Positions 16,086-36,225 of a stretch of 64,000 nucleotides of DNA are shown one piece after another. The stretch comes from Candidatus Culexmicrobium cathedralense (GTDB lineage: Archaea > Thermoproteota > Methanomethylicia > Culexarchaeales > Culexmicrobiaceae), in assembly GCA_025061115.1 (NCBI GenBank), contig JANZKC010000004.1, positions 32,001-96,000 on the forward strand, read 5' to 3'. The notes beneath the pieces are model-generated. The model had not been told where the DNA came from and did not search any database. It was given only the letters and a program-made list of their open reading frames with translations. Made by a program: the position numbers and the translations under genes. Each line of letters opens with the position of its first letter. The stretch's first letter is position 1.

Positions 16086-16099
16086 CTCCCTATGATTGT

Positions 16100-16756
16100 T
16101 TGATGAATAAGTTGAGAGACGCAATAGTTGATATGCGATACTTACTTAGCCGGGGATATAAGCGGGAACAAGCCGCAAACTTTGTAGCAAATAGGTATGG
16201 GCTTTCAAAGGAGGAAAGAGCTATATTATATAGAGCTGTTTACGACGAAAAGCAAGCTAAAGATCATAAAATGAAAATAGTCGAACCAGACTACGTCGAA
16301 GGTAGAGTCCTTTCAATTGATGGATTTAACGTCTTAATAACCGTAGAAAGTGCCTTCCGCGGCAAACTTTTAATCGAATGCGACGACGGTTTCATACGTG
16401 ATGTCTCAGCGGTATTTGGCAAGTATCGCTTATCAGAATTCACTTGGAAGTCGACAGATCTGATATTGTCCTTTCTATCCAAGTGTAAGCCGAAATCAGT
16501 TTTATTTTTCCTAGATAGCCCCATAAGCCGCAGCGGTGAGTTAGCTTCCCAAATTCGCCGGCGGCTATCATACTTCAATTTGAGTGGAGACGCAAAAGCG
16601 GTGAAGCAAAGTGACACTGCTGTACTATCATCAGGGGAAGTAGTCGCGACAAGTGATCATATAATAATTCAGCGAGCTAATGCCGTTCTAGATCTGGCAG
16701 GGCAAATAGTCCGCAGCTATTTTCCACACTTGATCCTGAGAATTAATGATTTATAA
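16100..16756 (+). CDS. DUF434 family (PIN-like) protein
   Basis: YLLSRGY, IDGFNVLIT, DGFIRD, ATSD motifs. Confidence 0.85.
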   Translation: MMNKLRDAIVDMRYLLSRGYKREQAANFVANRYGLSKEERAILYRAVYDEKQAKDHKMKIVEPDYVEGRVLSIDGFNVLITVESAFRGKLLIECDDGFIRDVSAVFGKYRLSEFTWKSTDLILSFLSKCKPKSVLFFLDSPISRSGELASQIRRRLSYFNLSGDAKAVKQSDTAVLSSGEVVATSDHIIIQRANAVLDLAGQIVRSYFPHLILRINDL

Positions 16757-19213: not shown

Positions 19214-20170
19214 ATGAAGATTCCAAGGCAAATCATTGAAATTTACAAGCGGCAGGGTTATCACTTTGTGGGTAAGACTAGCGTAGTAAAGCCCTGCCAT
19301 TGGCTTAAAGCATCTCTGTTAACTAAAGGAGAGAAGCACTGTTACAAGCAAAAGTTCTATGGAATACCTTCTCATAGGTGTCTTCAAATGTCGCCTACTC
19401 TTGCTTGCACTCAGCAATGCTTATATTGCTGGAGAATTCAAGCTTCAGATCTCAAGATTTCTTGGAATGAAATGTCATTAACAAACTACGATGAACCGGA
19501 GGAAATCGTGGTTAAAGCTATCTTGAAACAGAGACAAATTCTTTCAGGGCTAAAGAGTAACAAGAAAGTCGATAGAAGAATGCTCGAAGAAGCATTTAGG
19601 CCTATTCATGCTGCAATTAGCCTTGTTGGAGAGCCCACGCTTTACCCGAAAATTGGGGAGTTAATCGGCTCATTCTTTAGTCATGGATTTAAAACGGTCT
19701 TCTTAGTGACTAACGGAACCAATCCAAAGGTTCTCAGCAACTTGGATTATGAGCCAAGCCAACTTTATGTAAGCCTTTCAGCTCCAGATGAAGAGACCTA
19801 TAGAAAAGTCTGCAGACCAATAATAAACGACGGGTGGCAGCGATTAAATGAAACGTTAGAGCTTCTTAAGAGCTTTTCATGCCCGACTGTGATAAGAATT
19901 ACTCTAGTGAAAAAGTTAAACATGCATAGCCCAGAAAAGTATGCAAAGCTCATATGCAAGGCAGATCCAACGTATGTTGAGCCAAAAGCGGCAATGAGCC
20001 TCGGATGGTTTAGATATAGGCTTCCACTAGACGCGATGCCAAGATTTGAGGAAGTTAAGGATTTTGGAGAGCTATTGTCGAGGCACACGGGATACAATGT
20101 AATTGACTCTTCAATTAACTCGAGAATTGTCCTATTAAGTAGGTTGAATAGGCCTATGAAACTAATTTAA
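19214..20170 (+). CDS. taw1: 4-demethylwyosine synthase (Taw1/TYW1 radical SAM)
   Basis: CYKQKFYGI.SHRC, CTQQCLYCWR, SLVGEPT. Confidence 0.95.
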   Translation: MKIPRQIIEIYKRQGYHFVGKTSVVKPCHWLKASLLTKGEKHCYKQKFYGIPSHRCLQMSPTLACTQQCLYCWRIQASDLKISWNEMSLTNYDEPEEIVVKAILKQRQILSGLKSNKKVDRRMLEEAFRPIHAAISLVGEPTLYPKIGELIGSFFSHGFKTVFLVTNGTNPKVLSNLDYEPSQLYVSLSAPDEETYRKVCRPIINDGWQRLNETLELLKSFSCPTVIRITLVKKLNMHSPEKYAKLICKADPTYVEPKAAMSLGWFRYRLPLDAMPRFEEVKDFGELLSRHTGYNVIDSSINSRIVLLSRLNRPMKLI

Positions 20171-20172
20171 GC

Positions 20173-20769
20173 TCAGCTTTCAACTGGAACAAACTTTTCC
20201 TTAGCTCCTTCAGCGGTTATTGTTAAAACGTCGATTCCATCTCCTGAAATTGCATCTCTCTTAATGGCGGCTTTTACTGCTTCAATGGCAAGCTTTTCAC
20301 CATCAGTCACGTCCATGTTTGGCTTGTAGTTTGATTCAATAATGCTTATGGCCAAAGCCGCTCCTGAACCCACTGCTGCATACTTATCCTCTATTAGAGA
20401 GCCGAGGGGATCTAGCACATACAGGTGAGGTCCTGAAGAGTCAACGCCTGCAATTATCGTTTCAGTTAAGTATGGAATGAGCTTTTGACCATATAATATT
20501 ACGGAGAGAAGTTTCGCTAAGCTCCGCACTGGCATTGGGCGTTTATGATCTAAGTTGTACAGGCTTGCCTCTGCAGCTAGTGAACGAGCTATAACCTGCA
20601 TGTCTGAAATAAGGCCTGCACAGGCCATTCCCAAATGATTTGTAATTTTAAATACCTTCTTCCCAACCTTGCTTATTATTGTATAACCGTAAGCTACTCT
20701 TTTTTCAGAGGCTAATACAACACCATCTTTACAAACTATTCCCACTGCAGTTGCGCCTACAGTAGCCAT
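20173..20769 (-). CDS. psmB: proteasome beta subunit (Thr1 replaced by Ala)
   Basis: GATAVGI..DGVVLASE, GSG, RDAISGDG. Confidence 0.93.
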   Translation of the reverse strand: MATVGATAVGIVCKDGVVLASEKRVAYGYTIISKVGKKVFKITNHLGMACAGLISDMQVIARSLAAEASLYNLDHKRPMPVRSLAKLLSVILYGQKLIPYLTETIIAGVDSSGPHLYVLDPLGSLIEDKYAAVGSGAALAISIIESNYKPNMDVTDGEKLAIEAVKAAIKRDAISGDGIDVLTITAEGAKEKFVPVES

Positions 20770-21004
20770 GAGTTAAACCTCCACCTTCCACCGTCTATCA
20801 TAGTGGATTTAAAGTATATTAACGTTCTCAACCCACGTTCCTGCTATAGCGCTGAGAATTTAGGTTAAGTGAAATTAGTTCCCCTTGATTGCATCTCTAA
20901 GTGTCATCACAATTCCATGCTTACTTCAATTAGCTCTTGGCTGGCCCAAAAATATTAGTCTCAAGCGGCAATTAAGTTATCTGGTGAGACTCTATTAAAA
21001 TGAG

Positions 21005-22546
21005 ATGAACTCTATGGCTAGCGAGCTAAGGAGAGCTATAGCAAAAATACTCAGCATAGGCCTTCAAATAAGCCCAGATGCGGTCGACGTTCTTGCAAGG
21101 AGGAAGGATGCTCTTGAAATAGCCTGCAAAGTAGTTGAGAGACTTAAAGAATTAGATGAGAAGCCCATTGTTCTAACTGCGGACTTAATGTTTAAACTCA
21201 TTCAAGTTGAAGAAGCAAAGCAAGAAGAAGAGGAAATTGATGCTGAAAAAATTCCTGTGGATGAAGAAGTCATATTCGATCCAACGCAAGTTATACGCTC
21301 CGAAGGTAGTGCTGAAAGCTTTGTAAGTTACTTCGTAAGCCGGTATAACAAGTTAAAGAGGATAATGCTGAGAGAGCGCTTTGACGTGCGCAATGCCATT
21401 ACAATTAGTCAAATTAGGAAGTGGAGTCACAGGGGAAAAGGCACAGTAAAAGTGATCTGCATGGTAACTGGAAAGAGAAAAACTGCTGAGAGAAAAATTA
21501 TTCTCGAATTAGAAGACCCCACTGGCAGCATAGTAGCTGTAGTCAACGATAGAGACCCAAATGTCCTAAGCAGGGCTGAAAAAGTAATTCGAGATGAGGT
21601 GCTGTGTGTTGAGGGGCAATTAGTGGGTGACATACTATTAGTTTCAGATATTATTCAGCCAGAAGTTCCAATACCAAGTGTTCGCGAAAAGGGATCTGCG
21701 CCACCAGTATTTGCAGCCTTGATTTCTGACTTGCATGTAGGAAGCAAATACTTTATGCGTTCAGCATTTAATCGATTCCTACTCTGGATCAATGGCAAAC
21801 TAGGGGTGGAGAGGTATAGGAGTCTTGCTCGAAGAGTGAAATATTTGATAATTGCAGGGGATGTAGTTGATGGAATTGGAATATATCCTGAGCAGGAAAA
21901 AGAGCTGCTTGTTAAGGATATAAAAAAGCAATATAGAATGGCTGCAGAGTACTTAGCTCAAATTCCTACGCATATAAGGGTAATAATTATACCTGGAAAC
22001 CATGACGCCACCAGGCAGGCGCTTCCTTCACCATCAATTTTCAGAGACTGCGCTGAGCCAATATATCGGCTGCCCAACGTAAGGGTCATTGGCGACCCAG
22101 CATACGTTAAGCTTCATGGAGTGTTATTCCTAATAACCCATGGACGAAGCCTTGATGATGTACTGGCTACAACTCCTGGAGTTAGATATGATAAACCTGC
22201 AGAAGTCATGGTGGAGTTACTAAAGAGGAGGCACATTGCTCCCATATACGGTGGGAGAACTCAAATTGCACCGGAGAAGGAAGATTACCTTGTTATAGAT
22301 AAAATTCCAGACGTCTTTCATGCGGGGCACCTACACACTTTCGGATACATGAATTATAGGGGGGTAGTAATCGTGAATTCAGGTGCATGGCAAGAGCAGA
22401 CCGACTACATGAAGTCCATGGGGATCAAGCCGGATCCAGGAAAAGTCACGCTGGTGGATCTAAGTAATAAAAGGGTTCATGCAATATTGGACTTTGCTAA
22501 GGAGAAGAGTGTAGAAATGTTCAGTTCACTTAGCGCCATCATATAA
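21005..22546 (+). CDS. DNA polymerase D small subunit DP1
   Basis: SDLHVGS, AGDVVDG, PGNHD, HG, GHLH, NSG plus OB fold. Confidence 0.93.
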   Translation: MNSMASELRRAIAKILSIGLQISPDAVDVLARRKDALEIACKVVERLKELDEKPIVLTADLMFKLIQVEEAKQEEEEIDAEKIPVDEEVIFDPTQVIRSEGSAESFVSYFVSRYNKLKRIMLRERFDVRNAITISQIRKWSHRGKGTVKVICMVTGKRKTAERKIILELEDPTGSIVAVVNDRDPNVLSRAEKVIRDEVLCVEGQLVGDILLVSDIIQPEVPIPSVREKGSAPPVFAALISDLHVGSKYFMRSAFNRFLLWINGKLGVERYRSLARRVKYLIIAGDVVDGIGIYPEQEKELLVKDIKKQYRMAAEYLAQIPTHIRVIIIPGNHDATRQALPSPSIFRDCAEPIYRLPNVRVIGDPAYVKLHGVLFLITHGRSLDDVLATTPGVRYDKPAEVMVELLKRRHIAPIYGGRTQIAPEKEDYLVIDKIPDVFHAGHLHTFGYMNYRGVVIVNSGAWQEQTDYMKSMGIKPDPGKVTLVDLSNKRVHAILDFAKEKSVEMFSSLSAII

Positions 22547-22575
22547 TTGCCCTTAATGCTGGGGGAATTGATAAA

Positions 22576-23562
22576 ATGGTTAAGATACGAGATGTTGGTG
22601 AATGGAGAATAATTGAAACAATCTTCAATGAAATAAGAATGTATCGAGACATGCCGCTGCCCTACGGTGATGACGCTGCAGCACTTAAAGCCACTAAACA
22701 AAAATTCATTGTAGTCAACTCCGACATGTTAGTGGCATCAACAGACGTTCCTCCTGAGATGACGTACAAGCAGGTTGGACGTAAAGCAACTATAATGTGT
22801 ATAAGTGATCTAGCTGCAAAAGGTGCAAGGCCAATAGCGCTTCTTTTCGCGCTTGGACTAAAAGCGGACATGAATCTAAGCGACTTCAAGGAGCTGATTA
22901 GGGGGCTTGATGAGGGGGCAAAAGAGTATAACGCCTACATAATTGGCGGAGATGTAAATGAAGCTTGTGACCTAATAATTTCAGGGACAGCCATAGGCGT
23001 AGCAGACAACTTGATAAGTCGAAGTGGAGCAAGAGAGGGGGATATAGTTGCAGTTACTGGTGAATTTGGCAATACAGCAGCAGGGTTAAAAATCCTTCTT
23101 GAAGGCATGGATGCGCCGCTCCCACTTAAAAAGCGATTACTAAAAGCAGTGTACATGCCAAGGGCGCAAGTAAAAGAGGGGGTAGCATTAGCCGAAAGCA
23201 ACACTATTACATCAGCCATCGATAGCAGTGATGGACTTGCAATTTCACTGCATGAAATAGCGTCAAAAAGCGGAGTGGGCTTTGAAATCGGTAAATTGCC
23301 AATCTCAAAAGAAGCCGCCAAGTTCTCTCAAATGCACAATTTAGATCCATTTGAGCTCGTCTTCTACGGTGGAGAGGAATATCATCTGGTTGTCACGGTT
23401 AAGAGGGAAGAATTTTCTAAAGCGCTTGAAGCTGTGCAATCGGTTGGAGGGCAATTAATACCTATAGGAAAAGTCGTGAAAGAGAATAAAGTAATATTTA
23501 AGAGAAGGGGTGTTGAGAGGATTATCGAAAAAAGAGGATGGGAGCACTTTACAAGTAAATAA
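22576..23562 (+). CDS. thiL: thiamine-monophosphate kinase
   Basis: GDDAA, SDLAAKGA, GGD, DSSDGL, GGEEY. Confidence 0.94.
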   Translation: MVKIRDVGEWRIIETIFNEIRMYRDMPLPYGDDAAALKATKQKFIVVNSDMLVASTDVPPEMTYKQVGRKATIMCISDLAAKGARPIALLFALGLKADMNLSDFKELIRGLDEGAKEYNAYIIGGDVNEACDLIISGTAIGVADNLISRSGAREGDIVAVTGEFGNTAAGLKILLEGMDAPLPLKKRLLKAVYMPRAQVKEGVALAESNTITSAIDSSDGLAISLHEIASKSGVGFEIGKLPISKEAAKFSQMHNLDPFELVFYGGEEYHLVVTVKREEFSKALEAVQSVGGQLIPIGKVVKENKVIFKRRGVERIIEKRGWEHFTSK

Positions 23563-23579
23563 GCCACATAAGTGTCCAT

Positions 23580-25316
23580 ATGAAAAATGTTGAGCGCGTT
23601 TTCATAATTGATGGATACAATGATGAGCCAGCAGGGTTAGGGGTACCTCCATACCTAGATGTATATGCCAGATATTCTGCTGGAGCCATATGGACATATG
23701 ACAGAAGCATCCAAGTCTTCTACTTCACAATTGATGAAGTTAGGAAAAACTTTGATTTCGTAATTAAGAAGGCAAACTCCTCACAGTTAGTGATCGTGAT
23801 AGGTGGAATGATAGTTCCAGGGAAATATTTAGGTGGGGAGCCTATAAAGCCAGAAGAAGCATTAAAAATTGGAAAACTTCTCACAAAGCCTGTGAAGATC
23901 CTTGGAGGCCCTGCAGCGAAGTACGGCTTTGGATTGGAGGGTGGAAAGAGCCCAAAAAGAATGAAGGAGCTAGAAGACCACTATGACATCATAGTTAAAG
24001 GCGACTTAGAAGTAATCACATACCGCTTACTAACCGAGAAACTGCGCGTAGAAGCCGTAGATCCTTATGAGAAGAGGAAGAACGCCAGTGAAATAAGGGA
24101 CTATGCAATTAGAGGAGCAAAAATAGCTTTAGACCACCCAAATTACGGCTTAAACCTGATATGTGAAATTGAAACTTATAGAGGGTGCCCCCGCTTCATT
24201 ACAGGCGGGTGCTCGTTTTGCGCTGAAGTACTTCATGGTCTTCCGGATTTCAGGCCAATAAAAGACATTGTTGATGAAATAGAGGCGCTGTATAGAGTGG
24301 GTGTAACGCACTTTAGACTTGGAAGACAGCCTGACATATATAGCTACATGGCTTTAGGCGTGGGAGAAACGGAATTCCCTAAATTAAATCCATCAGCCAT
24401 AGAAAAGCTGTTCTCAGCAATAAGAAATGTCGCCCCCAACATCAAAGTGCTTCATATAGATAATGCAAATCCGGGCGCTATAGCGCATCATCCAGAGGAG
24501 GCCAGAGAAATAACGAAGATAATAGTCAAGTATCACACTCCAGGTGACGTAGCAGCTTTCGGTGTTGAATCGGCGGATCCAGCAGTAATAAAAGCTAACA
24601 ACTTAAAAGCCCAGCCTGAAGAAGCAATGAAAGCTATTGAAATAGTAAATGAAATAGGCGCTAGAAGAGGGTGGAATGGGCTTCCAGAGCTCTTACCAGG
24701 AGTAAACTTTGTTCATGGACTAATTGGCGAAACAGCAAAAACGTATCAACTAAATCTGGAGTTCATGAGAGAAGTGCTTGCCAGAGGATTACTAGTAAGG
24801 AGAATAAACATCAGACAGTGCATACCACTTCCAGGAACGCGGATGTGGAGTGTTGGAAACAAAATTATCAAGCGCCATAAGGGCATTTTCAAAAAATATA
24901 AAGAGAAAATGCGCAGAGAAATAGATTTGCCGATGCTTAAAAAGGTCATACCTACTTGGACTATTCTCAGAAAAGTATTCACTGAACAATCTGATGGTAG
25001 AATGACGCTGGCGAGGCAAGTTGGTTCTTACCCAATCCTCGTATCAATACCAATTAAAGTAGAATTAGGTAACTTTCTAGACGTGGTTATTGTTGATCAC
25101 GGTTACCGATCAGTAACCGGGCTACCCGTGCCACTAAGGATCAACAAAATGAGCGTGGAAACTCTAGCTAGAATACCTGGGGTAGGTAAAAGGCGTGCAG
25201 CTAAAATAGCAGTTAAACGTCCAATAAAAGGCGCTAAAGATTTAGATGAAATTATAGGCGACAGAAGCTTGGTTGAAAAAATATGCGAGATCGCTGACTT
25301 CACCGATGAAGGATAA
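23580..25316 (+). CDS. archaeal radical SAM protein with C-terminal HhH (COG1031-like)
   Basis: [15 protein letters not shown], Cx7Cx2[10 protein letters not shown] HhH. Confidence 0.85.
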
Positions 25317-25349
25317 ATTCTTAAATGTAACCCCAAACTATCAGATATG

Positions 25350-25455
25350 GGGCCCGTAGCTCAGCTTGGATAGAGCAACCTCATCCTAGCAGGATGAGGC
25401 TCGAGCCGGCCTTCTAAGCCGGGGGCCGCGGGTTCGAGTCCCGCCGGGCCCGCCA
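25350..25455 (+). tRNA. tRNA-Arg(TCT) with 28-nt intron at the D-arm/anticodon-arm junction (25/26 or 26/27)
   Basis: Anticodon arm CCGGC-CTTCTAA-GCCGG; intron hairpin CCTCATCCT/AGGATGAGG; encoded CCA. Confidence 0.92.
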
Positions 25456-25504
25456 TAAACATTAAGTTAACTGTAATTGAACCATTAGCTAATTTTAAAC
25501 CTAT

Positions 25505-26197
25505 TTAGATTACAAATCTCTCATAATCAATCAACTTAATTGCTAAGATAAAACATAGGAATAATATTAATGAAACAAGTAAAAGAGGAAACTGCATCCT
25601 CATCAAAGAAGCCAAATACGATACACTCCCCATAATTCTAGCCATAAGAACAATAAAGTTTATAATAATCAAGCTAATAATCGCAGGAATATACAAAACC
25701 AAGATATTCCTAGAAATAAGCTGTAATAATCCAACATTAACTATTAAAGAAAAAGACAATAAAGGATAGGATAAAAATAGAGAGAAAAGCATTTCCCAAC
25801 TTAAATTTAAGTTAACACCACCAACTATACAAGAAATATATGTTGCCACAGAACCTAGAGAAACATACAAATATGTTAGCAAGAGTATTGACAGAGATTT
25901 CCCAAAAATTATAATTGCTGGAGATAACGGCAAAGTAAGGAGATATTCAATAGTTCTAGAACTTTTCTCTCTAGAAAAGAACTGACCACAAAGAATTAAT
26001 GGCAGAAACATTGTATAGGGTTGAAAAAGATAAAAGAAAGCATACGACACCCTTGATTCATCAATCAAAAAAGGAATAAGTGATGAAGGTAAAAGAACAC
26101 TGATAAAGAGAACTATAAATTGCAACTTACTTCTAAAAACCATTTTTAAATCCTTCCTCATTATCAGCACTACTAGCTTAAAATTATTCAGAAACAA
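25505..26197 (-). CDS. ABC-2 type exporter permease (start uncertain)
   Basis: About 6 TM segments, EKSSRTIEYLLTLP..IIFGK motif. Confidence 0.88.
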   Translation of the reverse strand: MFLNNFKLVVLIMRKDLKMVFRSKLQFIVLFISVLLPSSLIPFLIDESRVSYAFFYLFQPYTMFLPLILCGQFFSREKSSRTIEYLLTLPLSPAIIIFGKSLSILLLTYLYVSLGSVATYISCIVGGVNLNLSWEMLFSLFLSYPLLSFSLIVNVGLLQLISRNILVLYIPAIISLIIINFIVLMARIMGSVSYLASLMRMQFPLLLVSLILFLCFILAIKLIDYERFVI

Positions 26198-27092
26198 ATT
26201 TCCTATACACCTCCTCCAAGGAAAATTCCTCAACTCCAATGCTCTTAAACCTACAATTAACCCTCATTAAAATCTCAGCAATTTTATTTGGATGCGAATC
26301 AACAAAAATTTCCAATTTCTCTCTATCAACCCAGAAGGATAGAGCATTAGATTTAAAAGCATTAACAGCTAAAACAAAGTTCTCCCCATCAAAAAATGTA
26401 ACCTTAACAACACCTCTAGAAAGCATCTCTTTAATCTCACTCTTAACACCTTGAATAACAAGCCTACCCTTATCTAGCAATATAATTTTCTCAGCTAAAT
26501 CATCAACTAACATCAAATCATTAGATGTTATAAAAATAGTCTTCCCTTCATCCCTCAAAGATCTAATTAAACGCTTAATTCTTTCCTGCCAAGTTAAATC
26601 CAAGAAAACAAGAGGTTCATCAAGAATTAGAAGCTCAGGATCATGAATTAAAGCTCCAACAAGAGAAAGTCTTCTCCGCATACCCTTAGAAAGTTTACCA
26701 ACAATAGTATCCAATTCATCTTCTAAACCAACCTGTCTAAGTAAATCCTTCAACTTCGATCTTCCAGCATCCAAGTTATAAGCTCTACTAAGAAAAAGAA
26801 GATTATCATATACTGTGAGTTCATCATACATACCATCAAAATCCAATAGTAAACCAATTCTAAACTTAATATTAACATTATTAAATGGATTTTCACCAAA
26901 AACTTTCACTATCCCTCTAGTAGGCTTAAGTAATCCAGCCATCAACTTAGAAATAGTAGTTTTACCAGCACCGTTTGGACCAATACAGCCTACAATTTCA
27001 CCACAATTCACTCTAAATGAAATATCATTAACACCAAGCCTGCTATGATAAAACTTCGATACACTATCAAATATAACAATATAATCACCCAT
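26184..27092 (-). CDS. ABC exporter ATP-binding subunit
   Basis: GPNGAGKTT, LSKGM signature, LILDEP; switch His appears as Asn. Confidence 0.92.
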   Translation of the reverse strand: MGDYIVIFDSVSKFYHSRLGVNDISFRVNCGEIVGCIGPNGAGKTTISKLMAGLLKPTRGIVKVFGENPFNNVNIKFRIGLLLDFDGMYDELTVYDNLLFLSRAYNLDAGRSKLKDLLRQVGLEDELDTIVGKLSKGMRRRLSLVGALIHDPELLILDEPLVFLDLTWQERIKRLIRSLRDEGKTIFITSNDLMLVDDLAEKIILLDKGRLVIQGVKSEIKEMLSRGVVKVTFFDGENFVLAVNAFKSNALSFWVDREKLEIFVDSHPNKIAEILMRVNCRFKSIGVEEFSLEEVYRKFVSE

Positions 27093-28464
27093 TAGAATCA
27101 CCAAATATTTTTGCACGTAAATTCATTTTACAACCCCAAGTACACTCATCTTTCAATGACTCCCACATTTTAATCCCTCTGGCAATACACCCTAAACAAA
27201 ACGCTAAATGAGAACATTTTTTGCAGACATCTTTATTAGGAAATGTAAGATGTAGGTCATTAAATATTAACATAATATTCTCTAAAGAATCACGAAAAAT
27301 ATTGCCCATATATAAATAAGTGGAAGGTAGCATTATGCAAGGTCTTACTTCACCTTTAGGATTGATAACTATAGATTTTCGCCCTGCACCACATCCAATA
27401 TTAATGAAACTTTCAACAATATGTTCAGGAATTATTTGTATAAATCCTCTAAATTTACGCCGTAGCTTTTTTACTTTTCTCATAAGCATTTTTACTTGAT
27501 TAGATGAGAGTTTAAGAGTATTATAGCTTCTTGAAGCTCTTCCAAAGGGTAATATCGGAGAGTAAGCAAAGGACGAAGCACCTAATTTTTTTGCAAGTTC
27601 AATAACATTTTCAATTTTAGTATAATTCTGAGGTGTAATACACGTTGAAACTCTCACTCTTATTTTAGCATCTGCTAACATTTTTATACTATTCACAGCT
27701 CTGTCAAAAGAGCCAGAAACTCCAGTAAAATAGTCATGATAATCGGAAGAATCGCTAAATAGAGTTATGCTAAAGCTAATAACATCTCTATACTTCTGAC
27801 ATATTTTGACTAAATTTCTATCAATATAATAACCATTAGTAATTACACTTACTATGAGAAAGTTTTTACAACAAAACTCAAGGATGTCAAGGAAATTACT
27901 ATGCAGAAGAGGCTCTCCCCCCGTTAATTCAACAATTCTAGAACCAGCTTTAGCATATTTTTTAAGAATGAATAATAATGCATCTGTTTTAATTTCTTCA
28001 CTGTAATTAAATGAGGAAAAAGCATAACAATGTTTACACCTAAAATTGCATTTATAAGTTAATTCAATGACTAGATGTAAAGGAATAGTGTACTTGTAAC
28101 TTCCTTTAATAATACTTGAAAAATCTTTGCCTCTAGCCAATGGAGAGTCCAGCAGATAAATATGGTTAAAATTCAATGCTTTTAAAATAAAAATTAAATT
28201 ACCTTTAAACTCTTGCTCATTTTTTGACAAAATTTCCAAAATTTCCTTGACTGTTCGTGTTCCATTGCATAAAAGAAGTAGATTAAGAGCATCTTGATTT
28301 ATTAATGCGTATCTCATGGAAGATCTAGTTGATGATTCGTTTATACGTGGTCGTTCTATTAGATATGCTCCCTCGGGTGCTTTGTGTAGCAAAATAGAAT
28401 CCGAAAGTACAGGATATTTCGTAAGTATATTCTCTCTTGAAGAAGTTTGTACATAATGTTTCAT
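27085..28464 (-). CDS. RRE + radical SAM + SPASM peptide maturase (AlbA-like)
   Basis: PqqD-like INQDALNLLLLCNGTRTVKEI; CNFRCKHC; GGEP; SPASM CGAG...GEVRPC...CxxCx5CxxC; ATG 1 nt after precursor stop. Confidence 0.9.
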   Translation of the reverse strand: MKHYVQTSSRENILTKYPVLSDSILLHKAPEGAYLIERPRINESSTRSSMRYALINQDALNLLLLCNGTRTVKEILEILSKNEQEFKGNLIFILKALNFNHIYLLDSPLARGKDFSSIIKGSYKYTIPLHLVIELTYKCNFRCKHCYAFSSFNYSEEIKTDALLFILKKYAKAGSRIVELTGGEPLLHSNFLDILEFCCKNFLIVSVITNGYYIDRNLVKICQKYRDVISFSITLFSDSSDYHDYFTGVSGSFDRAVNSIKMLADAKIRVRVSTCITPQNYTKIENVIELAKKLGASSFAYSPILPFGRASRSYNTLKLSSNQVKMLMRKVKKLRRKFRGFIQIIPEHIVESFINIGCGAGRKSIVINPKGEVRPCIMLPSTYLYMGNIFRDSLENIMLIFNDLHLTFPNKDVCKKCSHLAFCLGCIARGIKMWESLKDECTWGCKMNLRAKIFGDSNG

Positions 28465-28465
28465 A

Positions 28466-28612
28466 TTACTCTCCAAAAAGCACTGCTACAGTTGTTGAAT
28501 TAGCTACAACGATTATTGCAGGAGAAGTACCGCATGAAAGACAACCCTCACATAGGAAGCATGCAAAACAAAATTCTGCTATTGGTTCTACTTCGTACTT
28601 AGCTACCATCAT
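28466..28612 (-). CDS. putative sactipeptide-like RiPP precursor, 48 aa (not in ORF track)
   Basis: MMVAKYEVEPIAEFCFACFLCEGCLSCGTSPAIIVVANSTTVAVLFGE; GGAGG SD and TATA upstream; abuts rSAM gene. Confidence 0.85.
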   Translation of the reverse strand: MMVAKYEVEPIAEFCFACFLCEGCLSCGTSPAIIVVANSTTVAVLFGE

Positions 28613-28635
28613 CCATCTCCTCCACTTTCTTCTAT

Positions 28636-28657
28636 TTTTTTAAATATATATTTTTCG
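28636..28657 (-). promoter_or_regulatory. candidate BRE/TATA promoter of the RiPP operon
   Basis: Minus strand CGAAAAATATATATTTAAA about 30-45 nt upstream of the precursor start. Confidence 0.5.
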
Positions 28658-28754
28658 TTAAATAAAAGAGTAATAGTGTATATTATTATACATCAAACTA
28701 TAAACTATATAAGGAGACCACTATAGGCTAAGTTATAAAATCAATATATTTTAA

Positions 28755-28868
28755 TTATTTTAAAATAAGATTTGAGAAATGTCTTCGTATAATATGGCCA
28801 GCCAGGTCAAGAACCTTAGTTGCCCGCTCAATAATTACACAATCACTTGTAGCAATCACTGTCACCAT
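28755..28868 (-). pseudogene. 3' fragment of a DUF434 gene homolog
   Basis: VIATSDCVIIERATKVLDLAGHIIRRHFSNLILK aligns ungapped to the C-terminus of 16100-16756 (21/34 identical by hand count). Confidence 0.85.
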
Positions 28869-28974
28869 AATTGTTTTTCCAGCTATATATTGCAGTTAAA
28901 GTTTTAGCCGTATAATTTAGCTGGCCTAGTATGTTGTTTTTAGTTAGCCATGAGCTTGCCTTTAAGTTATAGTT

Positions 28975-29274
28975 TCACTCTTTCGAGTATGGTCCGAAGT
29001 TTAGTGTCTGGCTTTTACTTGATAGTTTTGGACCGCCTTTTTCACTGAAGCTTTCAACAAGATTTGCCCATTCTGGTGTTTTAATTGTTATTTTTCCACT
29101 TACTGGATACTTCTTAACTTCACGTTTATACAACTTATATCCCATGAATTGTCCGTTTGGTGGTGGATTGTCATGCCATTGGTTGTTCCAATAATACTTG
29201 TCTATGTAAATAATCTTCTTAGTGGATGTATGTGTTACCTTGATTTTTGTTAAGGTTGAGCAGTAATTGTACTT
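28975..29274 (-). pseudogene. startless open frame, probable truncated gene of unknown family
   Basis: About 99 stop-free codons in AT-rich DNA (..KIKVTHTSTKKIIYIDKYYWNNQWHDNPPPNGQFMG..). Confidence 0.35.
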
Positions 29275-29625
29275 TTAGAGCAGTTGAGAGAGATATAGCT
29301 TTGGTTCCGACGCCAATGGAAGTTTTAGGTGTAATTGTTTCTAGGGATCCAACAGTTAAATGGTTAAAGTTCTATAGATATGTGATAGATGACTTTGAGA
29401 ATAAGGCTATTCAGCGAAACATTCTTTTTGTCAGTGCTATTCCATACATGATTTTTAGGAGAATTACTGATTTCATGGAAAGTAAGATCAGTAAAGATGA
29501 TGAGAGAAAGCTATTCCAATTAATATTCCATAAATGCTACTGGACTCATCTGCTAAGTGTTTCACATGTGATAAATTTCAGTTTAAAATGAAAAACGCTA
29601 AGAAGTGCGCAAATAAGTGGCTTTT
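29247..29625 (+). pseudogene. possible frameshifted uracil-DNA glycosylase-like gene fragment
   Basis: IVSRDPT, then YWTHL / frameshift / KCF...NAKKCANKWL. Confidence 0.35.
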
Positions 29626-29962
29626 TCTTGGTTGTATATATTTTCTTTTATTGCGAATGCTAGGTAGTATTTTCTAAGTATTTTGTATTCTCTTGGTATG
29701 GCTCTTCCTTGCAATGCGTCTATTACTTTTCTCATAGTATTCTTATTAGGCTCATATGGGTTGTATATAATGCTCTTTAGATCATCCAATCAAACATAAT
29801 AATGAAGTTATAAACACTCGCCAATTAATTTGATTATAAAAATTAACATCATTCTCTACTAATGTTTCATTCTGCAATTTTGATGATCATTTAGGATAAT
29901 ATGGTGTGATGAAGTGTTTCAGTTTATCATGAATTACTGAAACGTTAGTATATAAATTTCAA

Positions 29963-30010
29963 GCCTTCTAAGCCGGGGGCCGCGGGTTCGAGTCCCGCCG
30001 GGCCCGCCAT
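29963..30010 (+). repeat. att site: duplicated 3' half of tRNA-Arg
   Basis: GCCTTCTAAGCCGGGGGCCGCGGGTTCGAGTCCCGCCGGGCCCGCCAT identical to 25409-25456. Confidence 0.95.
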
Positions 30011-30126
30011 TTCCCTAAACAACTTATTAGCTCGACATTTCATGGTATGTACTATCTGCCTACTAGTTGCGTGGAGTGCTGAATTTCGAAAAAGTGTTTA
30101 AAGCAGGTTTGTGTTTTCCTTTAGTG

Positions 30127-31185
30127 ATGAGCAAGGCCATTAAAGTTGATAAGAGACTTGGAAGTAAAGCTATTTCCACATTGAAAAAGATGAAGTTGCT
30201 GGATAGAAGGAAAAAAGTTAAGTGTATTGGTAATTTTCTGTTAATACCAATTTTGAGAGTCCTAAATGATGATGAAGCCCAGTTCTTTATGAATCAAGTG
30301 GGTTCCTTTGATATTTGCAAAACGTCTTTTGAGCCTAGAAAGCTAAGACCTAGAAACCTGATTGAAGCTCTTGATGGCATTCTATCTCCTTCAGAATTAG
30401 CTTCTCTCCCTCGATCTTTTGATATTATTGGAGACATCGCGATTGTGGAGATCCCTCCCGAGCTATCTGATGTCAAGGGAATAATTGGTGAAGCAATTGT
30501 CAAAGTACATCCAAAGGTAAAAGCCGTGTTTGCCAAGGCAGGACCTGTGGCCGGCACCTTTAGAACTCGAAGTTTAGAGCATATTTACGGTGAGTTCAAA
30601 ACTATAACAGTACATAAGGAGTACGGCTGCACTTTTAAGGTCGATGTTCTTAGAACGTACTTTAGCCCGCGCCTTTCATTGGAACATTATCGCGTGGCAA
30701 GCCAAGTTAAGGATGGAGAGATTGTTGTTGACATGTTCTCTGGGGTCGGGCCATTTTCAATCATGATTGCAAAATATGCTAGTGCAACAGTATATGCAGT
30801 TGATGCAAATCCACATGCTATTCGCCTCTTAAATGAAAATAGGAAAATTAATAAGCTCAAAGGCGTTGTCTACCCGATTTTAGGAGATGCCAGGTCTGTT
30901 TTATCTTCATGTAGACTTGAGAATTCGGTGGACAGGGTGATTATGAATTTACCTGAGCAAGCGCATCTATTTCTCGATGTTGCCTGCAAACTATTAAGGT
31001 GTTCTGGAGTAATTCACTACTATGCGTTCGCTAATGGCGCGAATCCCATAAAGGATGCTGAAGCTAGGCTTATTGAAGCATTATCATCCTGCTATAAAGG
31101 TGACTTTCTGATTCTTTCCTCTAGAAAGGTTAAAATTATTGCTCCCCGCCGCTGGCACGTAGCTATTGATGTTAAGTTGCTGTAA
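30127..31185 (+). CDS. trm5: tRNA m1G37 methyltransferase Trm5 family
   Basis: [30 protein letters not shown]. Confidence 0.92.
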
Positions 31186-31193
31186 GTTTCACT

Positions 31194-31628
31194 TCAAGCT
31201 CCGAGTTCTGCTACTATTTTCACGGTAACTTCCTTCCAGAACTCTCTCCTCAACTTCATTATTAGCTTTCTGTCCAAGTCCTTGGCAGCTTTATTCGCCC
31301 TTATCATAAAGGTTCGTGGGCAAATAAAATCGCTTTTCCTGCCAACTAGGCTTATAGGGTCTGTTAAGGTTAGCTTAGGATTTCCAATGCCGACAATTTC
31401 ATCACGTAAGTCATCTACTTCAATTATCACTTTCACCTTTGCTCCGCTTCTGATGAGCTCTTTTAAATTGTTTGATAGGTTTAGGGCTCCTTTATCCGCG
31501 CCTACAACTATTATGCAGTCTCCTCTTGGAGTCAGACGCTCTTCCCTTGTTATTTCAAAAGTTGTTTCATGGAGTGCTCGAATATTCGGATGACCATGTC
31601 CCTTTATCACTTCTTTCACTATTTTCAC
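31194..31628 (-). CDS. DUF371 family protein
   Basis: GHPNIRALHxTTFEIT, LTPRGDCII, RKS. Confidence 0.9.
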   Translation of the reverse strand: MKIVKEVIKGHGHPNIRALHETTFEITREERLTPRGDCIIVVGADKGALNLSNNLKELIRSGAKVKVIIEVDDLRDEIVGIGNPKLTLTDPISLVGRKSDFICPRTFMIRANKAAKDLDRKLIMKLRREFWKEVTVKIVAELGA

Positions 31629-31673
31629 ATACTTTTATACCAGTGTTTTATTCAATTATATTTTGTGTGCTTT

Positions 31674-32360
31674 ATGCAGGGCGACAAGTTTGTGAGAGAA
31701 AGAGAGCGATTAATCAATAGGCTGATTCGCGAGGGGATTCTCAAAGATCCTAAAGTTATTAAGGCGATGCTCAAGGTGCCAAGAGAGGAGTTCGTTCCGG
31801 AGAAGTATAAGCAACATGCCTATATTGATTCACCTCTGCCTACGCTGAATGGACAGACTATTTCTGCTCCTCACATGGTCGCGATGATGTGCGAGTTACT
31901 GGACTTGGATGTTGGGCATAAAGTTCTAGAAGTGGGAACGGGGTCGGGCTATCATGCAGCAGTTTGCGCTGAAATCGTTGCTCCATCAGATGTTGATTCT
32001 AAGCTTTGGGGCCACGTGTATTCCATTGAACGGGTTCCAAGACTTGCAGTTTTCGCCAGGAACAATTTAGAGAGAACAGGGTATAGCGATAAAGTTACAG
32101 TTATTGTCGGCGATGGGACATTAGGTTATTCACCGGCCGCTCCTTACGATAGAATTCTCGTCACAGCAGCAGCACCAAACATACCTAAACCGCTTATTGA
32201 GCAGCTTGCACTTAATGGCAGGATAGTCATTCCTGTTGGTGGCACTTACTACCAAGAGTTAATTGTCGGAGTTAAAATTTCTGACAGCGAAATTAAGACT
32301 TATAGTGCAGGCGGCTGCGTTTTCGTGCCATTAATTGGCAGATATGGATGGCGCTTCTAG
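31674..32360 (+). CDS. pcm: protein-L-isoaspartate O-methyltransferase
   Basis: QTISAPHMV, LEVGTGSGY, APYDRI, FVPLIG. Confidence 0.96.
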   Translation: MQGDKFVRERERLINRLIREGILKDPKVIKAMLKVPREEFVPEKYKQHAYIDSPLPTLNGQTISAPHMVAMMCELLDLDVGHKVLEVGTGSGYHAAVCAEIVAPSDVDSKLWGHVYSIERVPRLAVFARNNLERTGYSDKVTVIVGDGTLGYSPAAPYDRILVTAAAPNIPKPLIEQLALNGRIVIPVGGTYYQELIVGVKISDSEIKTYSAGGCVFVPLIGRYGWRF

Positions 32361-32372
32361 CCATTCTAGGTG

Positions 32373-33422
32373 TTAGCGCACCTTAAACCAGAGCTCTAAG
32401 CTAGCTTGCTTATGATGTTCTTCAAACGCCTTTAAAGCTCTTCCTACAGCTTTCTTAACTCTCTCGGGTGAAAAATCATGTTCTTTACATAAAATGTCCA
32501 TTATTGCTTCTTCATCAGGTTTCCTCCACTTTAACTTATAGTTTCCAGATACCTGAGGCTTCAAGAATATCTCCCTTATCGCGCTTGGTTCAACTGGAAA
32601 TGCGGCTTCCCTTAATTGTTTTAGCGCATTTTCAAGCGATCCGTGCATTTTAATTAGTCGTAGTGCGGTTTTAGGTCCAACTCCTTTAATTCCTTCTGGA
32701 TTATAATCTGTTCCGATGAGTATTGCAATATCTATTAATTGCTCTCTTGATATCCCTAAGCCGCTAAGCACCTTATCGAGTCGGATGACTTCAGGGTTTA
32801 TTTCGATGTACTCCCTCTTCCTAGGCAGCTTCCTCCTGCCTGAAATTGTTAAGTTTCTAACTAAGCGGGGGGCTCCGAAAAGTAGTGAATCATAATCTTG
32901 GCTGGCAGTCCCCCATACATCTCCTTTCTGAGCCATGTATGCTGCTTGAGCCTCTCCCTCCGAGGGAGCCTGAACCCAAGGTATTCCTAGGGCGTCAAGC
33001 AGTTTCTTTGCGTCATCAACCATTTCCTCAGTTAGCCTTGCCGTTTGCTGGGCATAAATTCTGGCGTCCTCTAAATCTCCTCGCCTTAGAGCTTCTTCAT
33101 ATTTCACTGCAGCTTCTTCCTTGAGCTTCTTGCGCCTCATGATCTCCATTTCTTTAATTTCTGGCGGCGTCCCATCAAAAACGTAAACTGGCTTTATTCC
33201 CAGTTCTATGAAGTTCACCGTCCTGTAAAAAAGCCCGCTTAAGTGACTTGTAATTCTACCACGGGAGTCCTTTAAAGGTGTTCCATCGGGTTGCCTAATT
33301 ATTGCTAAGAACTGGTAAAGCGCGTTATAAGCATCAATTGCGAGTTTCTTCCCTTTAAAGAAGCTCATGTCAACTTGCTCTACAGCTTTTTCGGGGATGA
33401 TGTCTCTTAAGTTTACCCCCAA
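32373..33422 (-). CDS. fen: flap endonuclease 1
   Basis: IDAYNALYQF, EGEAQ, SQDYD, GTDY, C-terminal PIP box. Confidence 0.97.
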   Translation of the reverse strand: MGVNLRDIIPEKAVEQVDMSFFKGKKLAIDAYNALYQFLAIIRQPDGTPLKDSRGRITSHLSGLFYRTVNFIELGIKPVYVFDGTPPEIKEMEIMRRKKLKEEAAVKYEEALRRGDLEDARIYAQQTARLTEEMVDDAKKLLDALGIPWVQAPSEGEAQAAYMAQKGDVWGTASQDYDSLLFGAPRLVRNLTISGRRKLPRKREYIEINPEVIRLDKVLSGLGISREQLIDIAILIGTDYNPEGIKGVGPKTALRLIKMHGSLENALKQLREAAFPVEPSAIREIFLKPQVSGNYKLKWRKPDEEAIMDILCKEHDFSPERVKKAVGRALKAFEEHHKQASLELWFKVR

Positions 33423-33426
33423 AAAA

Positions 33427-33666
33427 TTAACCTCCAGTTGTTAGTAGGCTGACATTTCTTAAGCCCTTTTTCGTGGCCGTGACCATGATTACCCCCCAGA
33501 TTTCCAGCTTCATTAATGCTTTATTGAATTCCCTGAGGGAAACGCTGTTAAACCTTTGTTTCAAGCTTTCAAAAAGTTCATCCTCTCTCATAGCTTTTCT
33601 TCTCTGCAATATTGTGATTATGGCTGTCTCTAGGGGCTCCGGGGTCCAAATATCGTTCTTCACCAT
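33427..33666 (-). CDS. small winged-helix protein downstream of cdc48
   Basis: FNKALMKLEIxGxI motif; operon context. Confidence 0.7.
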   Translation of the reverse strand: MVKNDIWTPEPLETAIITILQRRKAMREDELFESLKQRFNSVSLREFNKALMKLEIWGVIMVTATKKGLRNVSLLTTGG

Positions 33667-33674
33667 GTTTTCAC

Positions 33675-35897
<2,223 letters not shown>

Positions 35898-35952
35898 CTA
35901 CTTTAAACTTCTCTGCTTGATGTATATACTTTGTGGGGACAAGAGCTCTCAA

Positions 35953-36225
35953 TTACATCATCCTAGTCACATATTCGACATCGACTTGGCTCACTGATGG
36001 CACACTCAGTATTGCCTCCTCTATGGCCGTCGTGCCCCCCTCGCTCTGCTCTGGCATAACTATCGCCATTTTCAGCGCTTTTAGCCCGAAGGCTATGGGT
36101 TCTTCGGCTGTTTGAGCAACTTTGACGCCTTCTGGAAGCGCGGCGGCTATTTCCTTAGCCATATCTTCTAGGTTGACTTCAACTTCCTTGGGATATACTT
36201 TTACTATGACTAGCACCTTTCCCAT
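35953..36225 (-). CDS. ef1b: elongation factor 1-beta
   Basis: EEPIAFGLKAL. Confidence 0.95.
   Translation of the reverse strand: MGKVLVIVKVYPKEVEVNLEDMAKEIAAALPEGVKVAQTAEEPIAFGLKALKMAIVMPEQSEGGTTAIEEAILSVPSVSQVDVEYVTRMM

Follow-up and report, generated by a model that had tools for sequence, protein, structure and literature searches.

A widespread family of cysteine-register peptides beside AlbA-like radical SAM/SPASM enzymes: a probable sactipeptide precursor on a tRNA-Arg island of Candidatus Culexmicrobium cathedralense

We analyzed a 64,000-nt stretch of the genome of the archaeon Candidatus Culexmicrobium cathedralense (hereafter, the window), in which a short open reading frame (ORF) on the reverse strand, at 28466-28612, directly precedes a gene for an enzyme of the radical S-adenosylmethionine (SAM) type with a SPASM domain. 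On the evidence of gene signals and comparative sequence analysis, this ORF is confirmed as a genuine precursor-type peptide gene coupled to the radical SAM/SPASM enzyme. In our assessment, its product is probably a peptide made by the ribosome and then modified post-translationally (RiPP), of the sactipeptide kind, shaped as a nested hairpin of the thurincin H type with up to five bridges, and its likely role is that of an antimicrobial, archaeocin-like weapon.

The ORF encodes 48 amino acids, or 47 from a second ATG at 28609, which is the start chosen by other gene callers (the 47-aa forms P0169 and P0170). Its translation, MMVAKYEVEPIAEFCFACFLCEGCLSCGTSPAIIVVANSTTVAVLFGE, followed by a TAA stop (28468-28466), exactly matches the 48-residue peptide of the original prediction, with Cys at positions 15, 18, 21, 24 and 27, a GTSP turn immediately after the last Cys, and a Cys-free tail. 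The layout comprises a leader of approximately residues 1-14, a (Cxx)4C donor block at 15-27, GTSP, and the Cys-free tail at 28-48 (21 residues). The gene had been spotted beneath an antisense "shadow" in the ORF track, and this shadow was borne out as a longer, 68-aa ORF on the forward strand (28437-28643) that overlaps the peptide gene. A Shine-Dalgarno-like ribosome-binding site, GGAGGAG (28617-28623, reverse strand), can be read from the sequence 4 nt ahead of the first ATG and 7 nt ahead of the second, with an AT-rich, TATA-like stretch just upstream (28624-28660); the site is conserved in G002, a genome from a different genus of this family, whose bin carries 9% contamination and may mix two strains. 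At the other end of the gene, the stop codon is separated by 1 base from the ATG (28464) of the radical SAM gene, and the last two peptide codons, GGA GAG, form the ribosome-binding site of that gene, so that the two genes are translationally coupled. Between the window and G002, the ratio of non-synonymous to synonymous substitution rates (dN/dS) for the peptide copies is 0.07, a value calculated over few sites.

The peptide gene opens a four-gene operon in the order peptide, AlbA-like radical SAM/SPASM maturase, ATP-binding cassette (ABC) ATPase and ABC-2 permease, with overlaps or short gaps downstream of the 1-nt gap between the first two genes. The maturase gene (27085-28464, reverse strand, 459 codons; residues numbered on P0002) encodes an N-terminal domain resembling a RiPP recognition element (RRE) and matches the Pfam domains Radical_SAM (84.3 bits), SPASM (32.7 bits) and Fer4_12. 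Its best NCBIfam model is AlbA (NF012164; 201.8 bits over model positions 1-432 of 442), followed by GeoRSP (137 bits), SkfB (133), MftC (117), and PapB and StsB (both 93), and no other protein of the genome aligns end to end with the AlbA model. Judging from these scores, the maturase is AlbA-like but no AlbA orthologue. The best match in the PDB by sequence is SkfB (5.8e-30, compared with 6e-11 for CteB). The CxxxCxxC motif (C143/C147/C150) and seven C-terminal Cys (362, 380, 418, 421, 427, 430 and 445) are invariant in 30 of 30 relatives of the maturase, and the spacing of the latter, C-x12-G-x4-C ... C-x2-C-x5-C-x2-C ... C, indicates a full SPASM domain. The source of the closest relative's maturase is labeled as an archaeal metagenome-assembled genome, 'Candidatus Cul...', and dN/dS between the maturase genes of the host genome (G000) and G002 is 0.11. 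The ATP-binding subunit (26184-27116, reverse strand) is DrrA/lantibiotic-protection-like and likely starts at an ATG at 27092, overlapping the end of the maturase gene, whereas the start of the permease (25505-26239, reverse strand) is uncertain, being either a TTG at 26239 or an ATG at 26161.

The association between peptide and enzyme is conserved far beyond this archaeon. Thirty maturase relatives sharing 29-40% identity with P0002 were aligned, and with them we retrieved genome and metagenome loci, 11 of which contain near-full-length relatives, namely, those from Thermoproteota (L013), Methanobacteriaceae (L014), Brevefilum (L015), Bacteroidales (L016 and L018), Acidobacteria (L017), Deltaproteobacteria (L019) and metagenomes (L093-L096). 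At 10 of these 11 loci, a small upstream ORF on the strand of the enzyme encodes a (Cxx)3-5C block and then a tail of 19-30 residues containing at most 1 Cys; L096 carries two such genes, and for L093 just 164 nt of upstream DNA are available. Among 159 control loci with weak radical SAM relatives, the motif appeared once (L026, in a CGP-repeat ORF). In the peptide from Thermoproteota (L013:3113-3268), six Cys keep the register and the turn reads GPTP. Small Cxx-repeat ORFs beside radical SAM/SPASM genes, which the original prediction proposed to seek by pattern search, are thus found in both archaea and bacteria, and the peptide plan is shared by loci with homologous enzymes, so that the absence of conservation that the original prediction had named as its own refutation was not observed. 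An ABC ATPase gene follows the maturase gene at all six loci with short leaders and at none of the five with long leaders within the DNA examined, a conserved arrangement that fits export and self-protection, as far as gene content can indicate.

Within the genome itself the motif is rare. Among the 14,296 ORFs of at least 30 aa in a six-frame set from the 1.98-Mb genome, (Cxx)3C occurs in five and (Cxx)4C in four, these four being the window peptide and three ORFs of very high Cys content that neighbor a different radical SAM gene on contig C7. At the latter locus (G000 contig C7:3420-5677), adjacent ORFs of 155, 172 and 90 aa, with 45, 46 and 8 Cys, respectively, and many CxxC repeats, lie directly upstream of a 377-aa radical SAM relative (C7:4748-5677). 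This set resembles the CrpA/CrpC type of Methanococcus voltae, a Cys-rich protein with a SPASM enzyme, as outlined in the accessible part of PMC13692751.

The peptide belongs to a family that is uncharacterized but widespread. A word-indexed search with the window peptide retrieved the G002 copy alone, and the family was revealed by an exhaustive search with a profile of 13 peptides against 1.84 billion cluster representatives (E<=0.001), which returned 44 proteins (best 2e-10), about ten of them seeds or their cluster representatives. All 44 contain the Cys run, with five Cys in 34 proteins, four in 5 and six in 5, so that five Cys is the norm of the family and no peculiarity of this locus. 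In one six-Cys member, P0163, the extra Cys lies within the run. The tail is at most 30 residues long in 38 of the 44 members, and the stretch ahead of the first Cys of the run varies from at most 25 aa (7 members) through 26-100 aa (30) to more than 100 aa (7); the family is mostly bacterial with long leaders, and the short leaders are found in archaea. P0142 and P0168, both of 47 aa, have a GPSP/GTSP turn in common with the window peptide. Residues between and after the Cys are mostly G, A, L, V or I, and statistics on tail positions show small residues conserved at +1 and N/P/D at +4, with no period-3 acceptor signature and nothing decisive. The long leader at L017 weakly matches NHLP (17.8 bits, compared with a cut-off of 50.9), no Pfam or NCBIfam model matches the peptide or any family member tested, and the source names, where given, are 'hypothetical protein', including one from a Methanobacterium. 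Five large members (P0146, P0149, P0155, P0158 and P0162; 251-297 aa) have the (Cxx)4-5C block and an Ala-rich tail after an N-terminal domain of ~170-220 residues, which would be an unusually large 'leader' for a RiPP, and extend ~40 residues past the tail.

Structural modeling of the enzyme and its complex with the peptide was consistent with leader recognition by the N-terminal domain. The AF2 model of the maturase (pLDDT 89.3, pTM 0.89) contains, in this domain, strands at 21-24, 28-33, 36-41 and 55-59 and helices at 61-68, 76-83 and 87-102, which in the model is the RRE/PqqD layout; PqqD/RRE Pfam matches are present in 12 of the 30 relatives. In a Foldseek search, the model retrieved SkfB first (7.8e-26, TM 0.65/0.78, ~26% identity), then SuiB and CteB. 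Structure prediction for the RRE with the leader, which the original prediction had proposed as a check, was carried out with the enzyme and the peptide and gave an ipSAE of 0.62 (0.65, 0.57 and 0.62 in individual runs), compared with 0.00 for the best control, with contact agreement of at least 47% and partner pLDDT of at least 42. In calibration, 58 of 80 solved complexes attained the ipSAE mark, as did 2 of 110 mismatched pairs, although this calibration is rough here because custom alignments were used. The confident contacts in the model connect peptide residues 1-13 with enzyme residues 35-105 and 353-360, and the tightest ones bring peptide residues 4-10 next to the last strand and the last helix of the N-domain (57-63 and 92-99). 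The suggested pairing of a 'YEVEPI' leader strand with the RRE is accordingly reproduced by the predicted complex. Since RRE-leader complexes have already been solved, the docking score measures likeness to such complexes and is not proof of binding.

By analogy with AlbA, ThnB and SkfB, and combining these models with the gene content, we propose the following route. The short acidic leader (approximately residues 3-10) would bind as an added strand on the RRE-like N-domain of the maturase, whose SAM cluster would generate a 5'-deoxyadenosyl radical that abstracts hydrogen from an acceptor in the Cys-free tail; a Cys of the (Cxx)4C block would then form a thioether to the acceptor carbon, and up to five such cycles would produce a nested hairpin. 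The ABC-2 pump would export the product and probably protect the producer. In thurincin H, with a 31-residue core in a 40-residue precursor, the donors C4/7/10/13 are bridged to S28/T25/T22/N19, according to the review PMC8172795 as available to us. The comparison with thurincin H made in the original prediction held up, given that the donor spacing is the same and the 21-residue tail is long enough for five acceptors. The thurincin H register corresponds to acceptors at +6, +9, +12 and so on from the last Cys, such that five bridges need at least 18 tail residues; the six-Cys peptide of L013 needs 21 and has 22, and all four-Cys members have 19-21. Transferred to the window peptide, this register would predict acceptors at I33, V36, S39, V42 and L45. 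Across the family, however, the tail stays at 19-22 residues with four, five or six Cys; with no lengthening as Cys are added, the data allow one bridge per Cys but do not require it. The product would carry up to five nested C-alpha bridges and may be heat-stable, as the original prediction also inferred.

Several observations weigh against assigning the product to the sactipeptides, or against the activity of the system. The score of the maturase is well below the equivalog cut-off of the AlbA model (850 bits), and no PqqD Pfam match at E<=0.01 was obtained for P0002 itself. The clade of AlbA, ThnB and SkfB also contains enzymes for C-O and C-C bonds and rearrangements (PMC10288494, from the part of the paper available), so that the reaction cannot be read from enzyme similarity alone. 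The complex model confidently places the leader alone, leaving the core unplaced, and no similar sequence to the peptide was found among PDB chains (phmmer, E<=10). The island contains no leader peptidase. Among the eight runs containing the stretch, no RNA run is listed, which says nothing on expression. Finally, the count of 4 synonymous to 1 non-synonymous differences between the window and G002 peptide copies is uninformative as to strand, the antisense frame yielding an equal 4:1; it is the distant loci that tell the strands apart.

This last point bears on whether the peptide gene is a chance ORF, with the antisense 68-aa ORF, or nothing at all, being the real feature. The peptide ORF is indeed short, and its antisense counterpart is longer and has the same synonymous pattern, but the recurrence of same-plan peptides on the strand of the enzyme at distant loci and its near absence from the controls effectively refute this explanation, to which the rarity of the motif in the genome, the Shine-Dalgarno site, the stop-start coupling and the docking result add; we give it almost no credence. 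Silent or decaying cargo, that is, an island remnant lacking an integrase, with an operon no longer expressed or useful in the host, appears improbable as well. No integrase or mobility gene was found at 28869-29962, and the peptide and the greater part of the maturase are already gone from one G002 contig (C24, see below). Conversely, the four operon genes are intact, with ribosome-binding sites and coupling, dN/dS against the G002 copies is 0.07-0.34, and the promoter-proximal 260 nt are ~94% conserved with G002.

Two further alternatives accept the peptide gene but not the proposed chemistry. The one we take most seriously, while still considering it unlikely, is a RiPP precursor whose links are not sactionines or not nested: a ranthipeptide, a mixed product, or one with fewer than five bridges and free or disulfide-bonded Cys. 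Both kinds of thioether-forming radical SAM/SPASM enzymes share this architecture, with CteB and PapB detectable as relatives of the maturase; CrpC, an archaeal SPASM enzyme, makes ranthionines on a Cys-rich protein according to the portion of PMC13692751 at hand, ranthipeptides with six thioethers are known, and the constant tail length leaves one acceptor per Cys unnecessary. However, the AlbA and SkfB scores are well over that of PapB (93.3 bits, for a cut-off of 340), no SCIFF or ranthipeptide precursor model matches the peptide (0 NCBIfam families), the C-x-x-Q/D or Cys-Asp motifs of ranthipeptides are absent from it, and a donor half followed by a Cys-free half is the type I sactipeptide layout, at least as laid out in the accessible text of PMC8172795. 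Less probable again is that the Cys block binds metal or an Fe-S cluster, or forms disulfides, with the enzyme altering the tail in another manner, such as epimerization or C-C links, or that the gene encodes a small protein anchored in the membrane. The tail, AIIVVANSTTVAVLF, has the hydrophobicity that membrane association would require, and radical SAM epimerases (EpeE) are among the structural relatives of this enzyme from a polyfunctional clade. Yet, the invariant feature is the Cys register, with four Cys in 13 of 13 seed peptides and the run in every family member, whereas the tail sequence varies, and the full seven-Cys SPASM domain and the likeness to AlbA and SkfB point to thioether formation. 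The sactipeptide with a nested hairpin remains the assignment that we favor.

The operon resides in an island that shows the features of a tRNA-targeting integrative element, namely, direct repeats derived from the 3' part of a tRNA gene that flank DNA of foreign composition. A perfect 48-nt repeat occurs at 25409-25456 and 29963-30010, with 4,554 bp between the copies. The left copy is the last 48 nt of an intron-containing tRNA-Arg(UCU) gene (25350-25456, forward strand; Rfam match at 25350-25452, 47.3 bits), and the right copy, the 3' part of tRNA-Arg on the same strand, marks the other end of the island. The GC content of the island is 0.29-0.36, compared with 0.40-0.48 outside and 0.412 genome-wide. 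The tRNA gene carries a ~39-nt insertion in the D-arm region, which is a non-canonical intron position, and ARAGORN, which reported no tRNA over 20000-36000, missed this gene that Rfam detects. Upstream of the operon, the island contains a fragment, 37 codons long, from the 3' end of a DUF434/DUF5616 gene (28755-28868, reverse strand), which matches the gene flanking the cassette in G002 and not the host copy at 16100-16756, and a remainder without any recognizable gene (28869-29962), the last ~320 nt of which (29644-29962), together with the repeat, recur in another genome, G005. No integrase or other mobility gene was identified among the ORFs of 28755-30043 with Pfam and PHROG, and, by its gene content, the island is either a remnant or an element mobilized in trans.

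The G005 match to the right end and repeat (~85% identity over 368 aligned columns) lies beside a tRNA 3' remnant, suggesting, at the level of sequence comparison, an element that is related to the island but carries different cargo at the same site; the tRNA-Arg site thus seems to be a recurrent integration spot. This G005 locus (L180, G005:C8:998-2307) includes a MazE-antitoxin/PIN-toxin pair, ~300 nt matching the right end of the island at 85% identity, and the 48-nt tRNA-Arg 3' remnant, all next to Trm5 and the gene of a tRNA synthetase of class I (Trp/Tyr-type). Among the contigs of four runs, none is listed that joins 25456 to 30011, as expected of an empty integration site, and contigs break at both repeat copies. 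Per-contig depth of the island compared with its flanks was reduced in X2 (24.8-54 versus ~95) and marginally so in X1 (79-111 versus ~97), but such depth does not represent the share of cells and is not taken as evidence.

Comparison with G002 points to recent transfer of the cassette. On contig C241 of that genome, ~115 nt of the DUF5616 end, the promoter region and the peptide gene, continuing into the maturase gene up to the end of the contig, are 94% identical to the window DNA, whereas the adjoining core genes, for the C-terminus of leucyl-tRNA synthetase and for DUF434/DUF5616, are only ~65% identical to the host copies at 15531-16722. This disparity, together with the G002-type DUF5616 fragment in the island, points to a G002-like genome as the source. 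A second G002 contig, C24 (L179, G002:C24:780-2900), carries DUF5616, ~80 nt of intervening sequence, a degenerate stretch comprising the last ~200 nt of the maturase gene, the ATPase and permease genes, and the tRNA-Arg repeat. This variant is without the peptide and ~85% of the maturase but retains intact ATPase and permease, with 92% and 89% amino-acid identity, respectively, to those of the window and dN/dS of 0.19 and 0.34. From the sequence, the pattern fits an immunity-only remnant, though decay under way would explain it as well, and two strains may be mixed in the G002 bin. Contigs from the same metagenome runs that correspond to 25775-26132 and 26514-27181 contain a second transporter variant, 92-97% identical and at lower depth, indicating that more than one cassette allele coexists in the habitat.

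The surrounding genes are archaeal housekeeping genes, including those for the DNA polymerase small subunit, FEN1, CDC48, Trm5 and PCMT. Just to the left of the tRNA gene, a gene at 23580-25316 (forward strand) encodes a 578-aa radical SAM protein with a C-terminal helix-hairpin-helix, which is conserved at the corresponding place in G002 (577 aa) and has no relation to the RiPP cassette.

These findings can be placed in a broader scenario, which we put forward only tentatively and consider less likely to hold as a whole than to fail. Under this scenario, the peptides would constitute a hitherto undescribed family of hyper-bridged sactipeptides spanning both domains, with five nested sulfur-to-alpha-carbon bridges as the norm and six in some members; the archaeal cassette would travel on a tRNA-Arg island as an archaeocin weapon, with rival lineages keeping only the ABC immunity pump after deletion of the producer genes. 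If the five nested sactionines are real, the scaffold would be more densely stapled than that of any sactipeptide so far and would be the first archaeal sactipeptide backed by more than subtilosin homology, and a 34-residue core with five bridges from a hydrothermal organism would be of interest to peptide engineers and to research on archaeal antagonism. The family of 44 representatives, for which there is no curated model and in which short archaeal leaders contrast with long, NHLP-like bacterial ones, is a ready set for genome mining and suits tests of how one enzyme counts four, five or six bridges. The island, with a recent inter-genus transfer and a transporter-only deletion variant, is a natural case study of archaeal RiPP mobility. 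The sactipeptide class already has thousands of predicted clusters, making the surprise moderate; the interest is raised by the number of donors, by the archaeal host and by what was observed of the mobile island and the transporter-only variant.

With regard to novelty, our literature search found no (Cxx)4C family and no sactipeptide with five or six bridges, 'six thioether' leading to ranthipeptides of the PapB/freyrasin type, although bacterial members may already be present in the supplements of PMC10288494, which show its 'six new sactipeptide groups', or in the 2019 RODEO paper. The highest bridge count among sactipeptides is four, going by the available sections on the seven characterized by the time of a 2021 review (PMC8172795), on gnavucin D (PMC13239113) and on StsA (PMC10288494). 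Archaeal sactipeptides have so far been proposed solely by homology to subtilosin, in Thermococcus, as stated in the accessible part of a preprint (bioRxiv 10.64898/2026.07.27.741052).

Among known systems, the closest in layout is thurincin H of Bacillus thuringiensis (ThnA-ThnB), a type I nested hairpin. As described in the text at hand of PMC8172795, ThnA has a 9-aa leader with the first Cys at 13, compared with 15 in the window peptide, Cys donors every 3 residues in the N-half, and acceptors in a Cys-free C-half; a radical SAM/SPASM maturase and clustered ABC transport genes are likewise shared, and the PqqD-like domain of the maturase would have its counterpart in the RRE-like N-domain modeled here (PMC8172795 and, for gnavucin D, PMC13239113, both in part). 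The systems differ in donor number, four in thurincin H versus five here and four to six in the family, and in the host, which here is an archaeon, and the cluster in the window is without a protease, regulator or separate immunity genes. The likeness to ThnB is indirect, running through the AlbA model and the high similarity of AlbA and ThnB (PMC10288494, partial text), and ThnA is likened by layout only. For subtilosin (SboA-AlbA), the connection is through the enzyme, AlbA being the top-scoring curated family for the maturase and aligning end to end, whereas the peptide differs, with three bridges, irregular Cys spacing and head-to-tail cyclization in subtilosin. SkfB, the sactisynthase of the sporulation killing factor (SkfA-SkfB), has an N-terminal RRE and is the closest solved structure by both sequence and fold, but it installs only one sactionine, between Cys and Met, and has a different auxiliary domain. 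The ranthipeptides freyrasin (PapA-PapB) and thermocellin (CteA-CteB) resemble the system, as proposed, in having multiple thioethers, six in freyrasin, and RRE-containing radical SAM/SPASM enzymes; in contrast to the arrangement proposed here, they join Cys to the C-beta or C-gamma of Asp/Asn/Gln-type acceptors close by, and these acceptors are interspersed among the Cys.

In archaea, CrpA-CrpC provides a precedent for multiple thioethers installed by a SPASM enzyme; these are ranthionines, reported in 2026, and CrpA is a large, Cys-rich repeat protein of at least 100 aa, from a screen limited to proteins of that size or larger (PMC13692751, from the sections available). In gene content, the operon is reminiscent of the minimal clusters of Thermococcus, where sboA-albA-albC is predicted, and of Caldicellulosiruptor, which likewise combine a precursor, a maturase, a membrane protein and an ABC ATPase without AlbE/F and which have been proposed to be horizontally acquired (bioRxiv 10.64898/2026.07.27.741052, in its accessible part).

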